13,444 nucleotides of DNA from the NCBI RefSeq assembly GCF_003334815.1, contig NZ_QOWO01000057.1. One strand, given 5' to 3'. This stretch comes from Escherichia coli. GTDB taxonomy: Bacteria; Pseudomonadota; Gammaproteobacteria; Enterobacterales; Enterobacteriaceae. Within the stretch, counting starts at the first letter, position 1. Each line of letters starts with the position of its first letter. Under the pieces are notes generated by a model. The model made no database searches and was not told where the DNA came from. It saw only the letters and a program-made list of their open reading frames with translations. The translations under genes were made by a program, and so were the position numbers. Positions 8,246 to 8,503 of this stretch are shown here, piece after piece.

Positions 8246-8503
8246 TTAACGCGGAGAAATCCCGTAATGTGCAATGCAGCGCCAGCCACCATCCTGCTGA
8301 CAATAAACTGATTCCGTATGCCCAGGGATCACCCATTGAATTTCCTCGCCAGGCGGACAGGTCAGCCAAATGCATAACCCGCAGCCGCCGCGTAAATCAC
8401 GGGGAATATCGCTGACGCGAAAAGTCATGCCCGCTGCCTGCAACGCCTTGCGGGTTTGTATGACGCCGACCGTGGAGTGAAATAAAAACAGATACTCTTT
8501 CAT
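8246..8503 (-). CDS. 85-aa DUF3343-like (putative Se/S-carrier-like) small protein, translationally coupled to yjiL
   Basis: Its ATG 8503-8501 overlaps the yjiL stop TGA 8502-8500 (ATGA). The sequence [43 protein letters not shown] fits the F-x-S ... helix ... P-R ... CG pattern I associate with DUF3343 (Pfam Se_S_carrier). It fills the gap between yjiL and the SD-supported yjiK start. Confidence 0.7.

Follow-up and report, generated by a model that had tools for sequence, protein, structure and literature searches.

The gene ytiA of Escherichia coli, which codes for a small protein of the DUF3343 family, is a genuine protein-coding gene under purifying selection, and its linkage to the genes for a double-cubane-cluster reductase (YjiM) and its ATP-dependent activator (YjiL), or to their counterparts, is conserved in two distant lineages. 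The coupling of DUF3343 proteins to double-cubane reductases across lineages is new and has apparently not been discussed in print. The DNA analysed here (referred to as the window) is a stretch of 13,444 nucleotides of the E. coli chromosome, which extends from the iraD side to mdtM, and the features in it that are of importance for this work are as follows.

8246..8503, minus strand: the ytiA coding sequence, 85 codons and a TAA stop, for a DUF3343 / PF11823 protein (ORF listing, translation, Pfam, RefSeq WP_000666413.1).
8500..8503, minus strand: ATGA, in which the ytiA start overlaps the yjiL stop in the geometry of translational coupling (direct reading; overlap in 64 of 66 loci).
8327..8497, minus strand: the region matching PF11823, residues 3-59 of ytiA (Pfam search).
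8375..8410, minus strand: the motif D32-I-P-R-D-L-R-G-G-C41-G-L43 of ytiA (orthologue and distant-family alignments).
8383-8381, minus strand: TGC, the codon for Cys41, the family-wide invariant cysteine.
8500..9267, minus strand: yjiL, the ATP-dependent [4Fe-4S] activator (archerase) and operon partner (PF01869, TIGR00241, PDB matches; RefSeq coordinates).
9277..10428, minus strand: yjiM, the double-cubane-cluster reductase and operon partner (NF040772, PDB 6ENO/7YYL).
7321..8181, minus strand: yjiK, an SdiA-regulated domain protein, a mere neighbour outside the module (RefSeq annotation; absent after ytiA in most other genera).

In the ORF list of the window, ytiA is a minus-strand frame that begins with ATG and has a translation of 85 aa, in agreement with the intact 85-codon frame at 8246-8503 described in an earlier note on this DNA. 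In the context of its start (...cgcgcATGAaagag), the ATG (8503-8501) shares bases with the TGA stop codon of yjiL (8502-8500), and this overlap, which the earlier note had also described, is seen directly in the sequence; the same junction can also be read as ...aaaacgcgcATGAaagag. At the other end of the gene, the mechanically delimited ORF for yjiK (7321-8292, minus strand) reaches 111 nt upstream of the GTG at 8181 and covers the last 47 nt of ytiA. This long ORF overlapping the 3' end of ytiA had been recognised before, together with the suggestion that the start of yjiK is better placed at GTG 8181; the RefSeq gene for yjiK is 861 nt in length with its start corresponding to the same GTG, and the sequence AAGGGA is found 5 nt ahead of this codon. 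The upstream extension to 8292 is unlikely to be coding. A scan for promoters and terminators from yjiM to yjiK revealed nothing exceeding the shuffle expectation.

The earlier note had regarded ytiA as an additional gene, absent from the known list for this locus. This view is incorrect, as ytiA is annotated in RefSeq in essentially every E. coli genome. In a megablast search with positions 7300-10500 of the window, 5391 of 5426 complete E. coli genomes showed a match, and the 258-nt ytiA ORF alone is present in 5386 of these 5426 genomes; the features annotated under the megablast match are yjiM, yjiL, yjiK and ytiA, the last one as a "DUF3343 domain-containing protein" or "putative Se/S carrier protein". 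In strain HS30-1, ytiA is a gene of 258 nt (WP_000666413.1) on the same strand, which overlaps yjiL by 4 nt and is 100% identical to the window allele, and in a K-12-type strain it is likewise annotated (WP_000657675.1). The annotated ytiA (WP_000666413.1 / WP_000657675.1) and the frame described here agree in their coordinates, length and strand and are the same gene. The existence of ytiA as a gene and its assignment to the DUF3343 family are thus settled and already annotated, and the interest lies in the company that this gene keeps, not in the gene itself.

In terms of its family, the DUF3343 pattern which had earlier been recognised in this protein is borne out by a search against the Pfam profile PF11823 (Se_S_carrier, formerly DUF3343), which gives a score of 52 bits (E 5e-14; gathering score 25 bits) with residues 3-59 of YtiA aligned on positions 1-57 of the 69 in the profile. 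The length of YtiA (85 aa) and of its orthologues (78-91 aa) lies within the range of about 75-100 residues for the stand-alone members of this family, and the cysteine of the P-R...C-G motif, described for this family as highly conserved by Lin et al. 2015, is present as Cys41. Within the motif, D32, I33, P34, R35, L37, R38, G40, C41, G42 and L43 do not vary among 22 orthologues, and the invariance of C-G proposed in the earlier note therefore holds for Cys41-Gly42. Other positions that are invariant in the Enterobacterales clade are L5, L7, F8, H9, T11, G13, V14, R18, L21, Q22 and F28, and the C-terminal third of the protein is variable in the orthologue alignment. An alignment of 32 distant DUF3343 members has just three invariant positions (F8, P34 and C41), and Cys44 is among those that vary. 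The sequence CGLC (C41-C44) is nearly invariant in Enterobacteriaceae, with Cys44 being replaced by Ser in Hafnia and in the more distant locus L080, and by Gly in the protein P0012.

An AlphaFold2 model of YtiA based on 22 orthologues shows a mean pLDDT of 89.4 and a pTM of 0.80, with predicted strands at residues 2-8, 28-32, 43-49, 63-70 and 73-79 and helices at 11-23 and 53-57; the conserved loop 33-42 (DIPRxLRGGCG) has Cys41 at its end. A sequence search with YtiA against all PDB chains gave no match below E 0.05, and NCBIfam has no model for this protein. Multi-domain matches to the YtiA profile were also considered as natural fusions and rejected, as two candidates (P0182, P0219) are spurious FG-GAP proteins and two others (P0153, P0169) come from short contigs, where YjiL reads through into YtiA in fragmentary form.

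A genome scan with the orthologue alignment led to the identification of 70 loci, one per species, from Enterobacteriaceae and Hafnia, covering the genera Escherichia, Citrobacter, Klebsiella, Raoultella, Kluyvera, Kosakonia, Phytobacter, Atlantibacter, Cedecea, Trabulsiella, Yokenella, Superficieibacter, Intestinirhabdus and Hafnia. The ytiA frame is intact (78-91 codons) and adjoins yjiL in 66 of these 70 loci, 65 of these frames being read from the start codon and that of Hafnia (L068) from two codons past its ATG; the four remaining loci comprise an apparently decayed one from Shigella flexneri, two in frameshift-rich assemblies and one at a contig end. The start of ytiA overlaps the stop of yjiL in 64 of the 66 assessable loci, by means of ATGA (40 loci), GTGA (11), TGATG (6), TAATG (5), TAGTG (1) and, in the Hafnia locus, ATGCAGGATGA. 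The conservation of the frame and the ratio of non-synonymous to synonymous change, which the earlier note had considered to be informative, both point to a functional gene, since the median pairwise dN/dS for ytiA is 0.24, compared to 0.10 for yjiL and 0.06 for yjiM (Nei-Gojobori, 64 loci), and the pooled pN/pS for ytiA is 0.27 for codons 1-46 versus 0.55 for the tail. If the ytiA ORF were not expressed, and had arisen in the spacer between yjiL and yjiK by chance or through misannotation, then neither the significant Pfam match, nor the intact frame in nearly all of these loci with the above dN/dS, nor the confidently predicted fold (pLDDT 89), nor the persistence of the frame where yjiK is absent would be expected, and this explanation is strongly disfavoured, to the extent that it need hardly be entertained. 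The gene order yjiM-yjiL-ytiA is seen in all 70 loci, and yjiN is absent from many of them and yjiK and yjiJ from most. The same trio is also found in L080 (protein P0164, ~36% identical), where the HGD-D and BcrAD_BadFG genes, both of which pass the double-cubane and activase models, precede the DUF3343 gene with a 19-nt gap, and the surroundings are not those of E. coli but include efp and a radical-SAM gene.

A number of other observations concern the variation of this region within E. coli and its close relatives. The ytiA and yjiL genes of the window are 94.2% and 94.1% identical, respectively, to those of the K-12-type allele (L072), versus 97.7% for the flanking yjiM and 97.9% for yjiK, and the YtiA proteins of the two alleles differ in 5 amino acids. 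Across E. coli genomes, ytiA falls into allele classes, with 1938 genomes at >=99% identity and 3344 at 90-95%. The lower identity of yjiL/ytiA than of their flanks, together with the two allele classes of ytiA, suggests an old recombination patch over yjiL-ytiA (window 8246-9267). In some strains (H46-H49; also L166, E. coli O145:NM FWSEC0002, locus 1-1711), the match ends 47 nt before the ytiA stop, ytiA has 88 codons with a different C-terminus, and a gene for a pentapeptide-repeat protein replaces yjiK; the ending of the match inside ytiA indicates that the breakpoint of a variable region lies within the poorly conserved 3' end of this gene (window ~8246-8292). In E. coli FCI1 (L167), ytiA is truncated by IS50R and yjiM has an internal stop, so that the two have been lost together. 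In Shigella flexneri SFBU0723 (L065), ytiA is a 35-codon frame and its neighbours match partially or at low identity, which points to decay of this locus, unless assembly errors are responsible.

The identity of the two partners of ytiA is indicated by several matches. YjiM scores 532 bits against the NCBIfam equivalog NF040772, "double-cubane-cluster-containing anaerobic reductase" (cut-off 350), and it matches the Carboxydothermus DCCP (PDB 6ENO/7YYL) with E 4e-75 and with the cluster cysteines aligned: Cys 40, 59, 78, 93, 108, 273, 302, 304 and 335 of YjiM line up with cysteines of 6ENO. A regular expression for the published cysteine spacing found no exact match in YjiM. YjiL is an adjacent ATP-dependent activase of the BcrAD_BadFG/HgdC type, as seen from its matches to PF01869 (E 6.8e-75) and TIGR00241 (358 bits, cut-off 125) and, among PDB proteins, to 1HUX (HgdC; 1e-52) and the DCCP reductase 7YYL_E (5e-47). 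Jeoung, Martins and Dobbek have described the DCCP systems as two-component, with YjiM/YjiL named as a possible class II example, and the physiological role of double-cubane reductases has been called unknown since their description in 2018 (PMC7317905, PMC9351452). The model NF040772 was built by Haft in 2022, with YjiM listed as a member, and in the same work 955 of 970 YjiM-family proteins were found in SelD-containing genomes and the presence of selenium in the cofactor was raised as a formal possibility (bioRxiv 10.1101/2022.07.06.499078). Further, in the transcriptome of a ygfI mutant, yjiM and yjiL drop along with the hyc and hyp genes (PMC9068703), which fits with anaerobic expression of these genes and should not be interpreted as proof of more than this.

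The relationship of YtiA to the wider DUF3343 family was examined by profile searches. With the profile made from close YtiA orthologues, the best 120 matches were from Enterobacterales only; a second profile alignment was made from distant DUF3343 members, and an exhaustive profile search yielded 119 DUF3343 representatives at E <= 1e-3. Gene neighbourhoods were inspected for twelve distant members (L073-L084). In six of these, from Proteus, Budvicia and others (L075, L077-L079, L081, L082), the DUF3343 gene begins within the last 10-25 nt or so of a yedE-like (Sulf_transp) transporter gene, and the DUF3343 proteins encoded there are the closest non-orthologous relatives of YtiA. The position after a yedE-like gene is the place that is occupied by yedF in E. 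coli. In the other loci, the DUF3343 gene occurs with TusA and a class-V aminotransferase (L073), with an aminotransferase only (L074), with SelA, an aminotransferase and YedF (L076), among uninformative neighbours (L083), or in a reductase context (L080, L084). These neighbourhoods reproduce the Se/S context already seen by Lin et al. 2015 and Kayrouz et al. 2022: Lin et al. (PMC5322559) proposed DUF3343 to be a Se/S chaperone with links to YedE, YedF, Sec lyase and SelD, and duf3343 ranks near the top of the genes that overlap selD (bioRxiv 10.1101/2022.04.13.486033). For the DUF3343 family as a whole, a Se/S-carrier function is one suggested by comparative genomics. Genes of this kind (viz. 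YedE, YedF/TusA, Sec lyase/desulfurase and SelA/SelD) were not found near ytiA, which is accompanied in the window by yjiM, yjiL and yjiK; the presence of Se/S genes in the neighbourhood is a contextual feature of PF11823 and the basis of the family name, and it is not a sequence criterion.

The two loci in a reductase context include one from an uncultured bacterium (L084), in which the order of the genes is YedF - DUF3343 - double-cubane reductase - DUF3343 - activase - cysteine-desulfurase-family/SclA-like protein, with matches to the selenium YedF model TIGR03527, to NF040772 for the reductase (491 bits) and to TIGR01977 for the desulfurase (404 bits). A metagenome scan with the invariant reductase stretch VGETTCDGKKK identified 567 relatives, and the best 80 of these 567, which are nearest to the L084 reductase, were retained; these are 67-82% identical to the L084 reductase and ~36% identical to YjiM. 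A DUF3343 ORF was detected in 74 of the 80 loci (median E 2e-10, with an HMM from the distant DUF3343 alignment), a number which, as the clade was reached via a look-up of DUF3343, measures conservation within this clade and not an unbiased rate over all double-cubane reductases. In 72 loci, the DUF3343 gene lies directly 3' of the reductase gene, at a distance of <=30 nt in 61 loci and overlapping it in 23. Among the 6 loci in which no DUF3343 ORF was detected, two stop at a contig edge and one has a marginal match at the expected place. When clustered by reductase identity, the 80 loci form 34 groups at 90% and 12 at 80%, and DUF3343 is present in at least one locus of 11 of these 12. An activase gene is seen in 41 of the 80 loci, an SclA-like (cysteine-desulfurase-family) gene in 35, YedF in 11 and SelA in 6. 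The gene order in this clade is reductase-DUF3343-activase, as opposed to reductase-activase-DUF3343 in E. coli, which indicates that the association of these genes has been kept and their synteny has not.

The DUF3343 proteins from the two groups also differ in their sequence features. The reductase-adjacent subgroup (L086-L165) has a CCG motif in place of Gly-Cys-Gly, and its C-terminus is ...NPxRDRYC-COOH or has another C-terminal Cys, with 45 of 53 distinct sequences ending in Cys, whereas YtiA lacks both the CCG motif and the C-terminal RDRYC or terminal cysteine. YtiA scores highest with the YedE-coupled subgroup of Enterobacterales (40-57 bits), followed by the YedF/SclA-linked (22-33 bits) and the reductase-adjacent (15-25 bits) subgroups. 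As YtiA belongs to a subgroup other than the reductase-adjacent one, there are two branches of DUF3343 proteins, each of which is tied to a double-cubane reductase. Two side observations were also made on the metagenomic loci. Compact clusters consisting of a selenium YedF, one or two DUF3343 genes, the reductase, the activase and a Sec-lyase-like desulfurase are found in L084 (5381-10558), L089, L092, L144 and L146, with SelA additionally present in the relatives L133, L136, L138, L141, L142 and L148, and these compact clusters resemble the arrangement indicated by the Slackia gene numbers of Lin et al. 2015 (Table 1). Six other loci (L105, L118, L119, L126, L132, L155) contain a second, divergently oriented double-cubane reductase paralogue without a DUF3343 gene of its own, and in them one DUF3343 protein may serve two reductases.

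No functional study came to light in literature searches on ytiA of E. coli, PF11823, Se/S carriers and DCCP-R, and no paper in the library searched treats DUF3343 as a third component of the DCCP system. The earlier note had known of no description of such a protein being expressed stoichiometrically with an ATP-driven Fe-S reductive activator. This is only roughly correct. Activase and HGD-D partners already appear in the first table of Lin et al. 2015, where the STRING partners of DUF3343/YedF in Slackia include a 'CoA-substrate-specific enzyme activase' and 2-hydroxyglutaryl-CoA dehydratase subunits, which were not discussed (PMC5322559), and a tie between the YjiM family and SelD was reported by Haft in 2022.

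Among the different explanations for the function of YtiA, the one that we rank first, with a probability of about 0.45, is that this protein is a Cys41-based carrier of sulfur or selenium, as substrate or product, which works with YjiM/YjiL; for this explanation we infer a carrier chemistry, a physical partnership with YjiM/YjiL and an involvement of selenium. As the third cistron of a yjiM-yjiL-ytiA module, ytiA would be translationally coupled to yjiL by virtue of the ATGA overlap, a sulfur or selenium atom would be held on Cys41 in the form of a persulfide, perselenide or bound chalcogen compound, and YtiA would either give this chalcogen to, or take it from, the YjiM double-cubane reductase, which would be charged by YjiL with low-potential electrons at the expense of ATP. 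The retention of the trio in Enterobacterales, the same pairing in a distant clade, the S/Se context of the DUF3343 relatives, and the published correlations of DUF3343 with Se/S and of the YjiM family with SelD all argue for such a carrier. However, the term 'carrier' derives from gene neighbourhoods and the E. coli locus has no Se/S gene; further, the solved reductase:activator complex (7YYL) functions in vitro as two proteins (PMC9351452), the release of selenide from a perselenide has no obvious need for an ATP-boosted reductant, and the CCG motif and RDRYC of the reductase-adjacent subgroup are absent from YtiA. If YtiA instead acts at the stage of cluster assembly, then it would be a maturation factor, which brings a bridging sulfide (or selenium) for the [8Fe-9S] cluster of YjiM in a manner similar to NifS/NifU for nitrogenase. 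The nearly constant pairing of DUF3343 with the reductase gene itself, the cysteine-desulfurase-family gene in 35 of the 80 metagenomic loci, and the reductase-SelD correlation along with the formal possibility of Se in the cofactor (Haft, bioRxiv 10.1101/2022.07.06.499078) are all consistent with this role, but the Carboxydothermus protein acquired its cluster on heterologous expression, and its structure was determined with no factor of this kind (PMC7317905, PMC9351452), many DUF3343 genes occur with YedE, YedF or SelA with no reductase near, and the general Isc and Suf machinery is present in E. coli; this role is considered unlikely and comes second in rank.

It is also conceivable that YtiA is a general S/Se trafficking protein and that its adjacency to yjiL results from shared anaerobic regulation, with no direct link to YjiM/YjiL. 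The coupling of the closest non-orthologous relatives of YtiA to YedE rather than to a reductase, and the fall of yjiM and yjiL with hyc/hyp in the ygfI mutant (PMC9068703), can be understood in this manner. However, the retention of the ytiA/yjiL stop/start overlap across genera, the persistence of the trio as its flanks change, and the occurrence of the same pairing, in another gene order, in an unrelated clade make it improbable that co-regulation is all that connects these genes. Lastly, YtiA could be a redox or electron-transfer adaptor, in which the C41-G-L-C44 pair, as a dithiol/disulfide or as the ligands of a dimer-bound Fe-S cluster, feeds YjiL. To our knowledge, no physiological electron donor for such activators is known in E. 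coli, which counts in favour of an adaptor, as does the near invariance of CGLC in Enterobacteriaceae. However, the variability of Cys44 (Ser in Hafnia and L080, Gly in P0012), with Cys41 alone being invariant, renders this suggestion very doubtful, and a CxxC redox motif formed by the CGLC pair was for the same reason discarded as the leading explanation.

The E. coli module can be compared with several known systems. With the DUF3343 / Se_S_carrier family (PMC5322559), YtiA shares its size, the profile match, the P-x-P-R-x5-C-G motif with the invariant Cys and the predicted alpha/beta fold, but it accompanies a double-cubane reductase and activator, not YedE, YedF or Sec lyase, and it has the clade-specific CGLC and a variable, Cys-containing tail. 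With the DCCP/DCCP-R of Carboxydothermus hydrogenoformans (6ENO, 7YYL), the likeness is between YjiM and DCCP (4e-75) and between YjiL and DCCP-R (5e-47); however, this system has been published as two proteins, whereas in E. coli and the distant clade there is a third, coupled DUF3343 gene. In the selenium cluster of Slackia, the genes are arranged as activase - DUF3343 - Sec lyase - YedF - DUF3343 - 2-hydroxyglutaryl-CoA dehydratase subunit (Table 1, PMC5322559). Clusters of this type, and those in L084, L092 and L144, contain the same three families as the E. coli module (viz. reductase, activase and DUF3343), but the latter consists of the trio alone, with no YedF, Sec lyase or SelA near, and YtiA is from a DUF3343 subgroup other than that of its reductase-adjacent counterparts. 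The TusA/YedF sulfur-relay proteins are likewise small, single-cysteine proteins which are found beside YedE-like transporters and desulfurases, and the same logic of a persulfide relay is proposed for them.

A broader proposal, which is made here tentatively and is held to be rather more doubtful than probable, is that double-cubane reductase systems regularly include a DUF3343 protein as their third component, and that these reductases, including YjiM/YjiL, act in the mobilisation of selenium (or sulfur). Such mobilisation might take one of two forms, with either SelD being supplied by the reductase, through reduction of a chalcogen bound to the DUF3343 cysteine, or the DUF3343 protein being needed to install S/Se in the cluster. 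If this proposal is true, then it would join two separate published correlations, viz. that of DUF3343 with selenium and that of double-cubane reductases with SelD, and an orphan reductase would gain a testable substrate in a model organism. As YjiM/YjiL of E. coli are an uncharacterised example of a double-cubane system in the best genetic model, the coupling of DUF3343 to these reductases makes the question of their role approachable by feasible experiments in E. coli.
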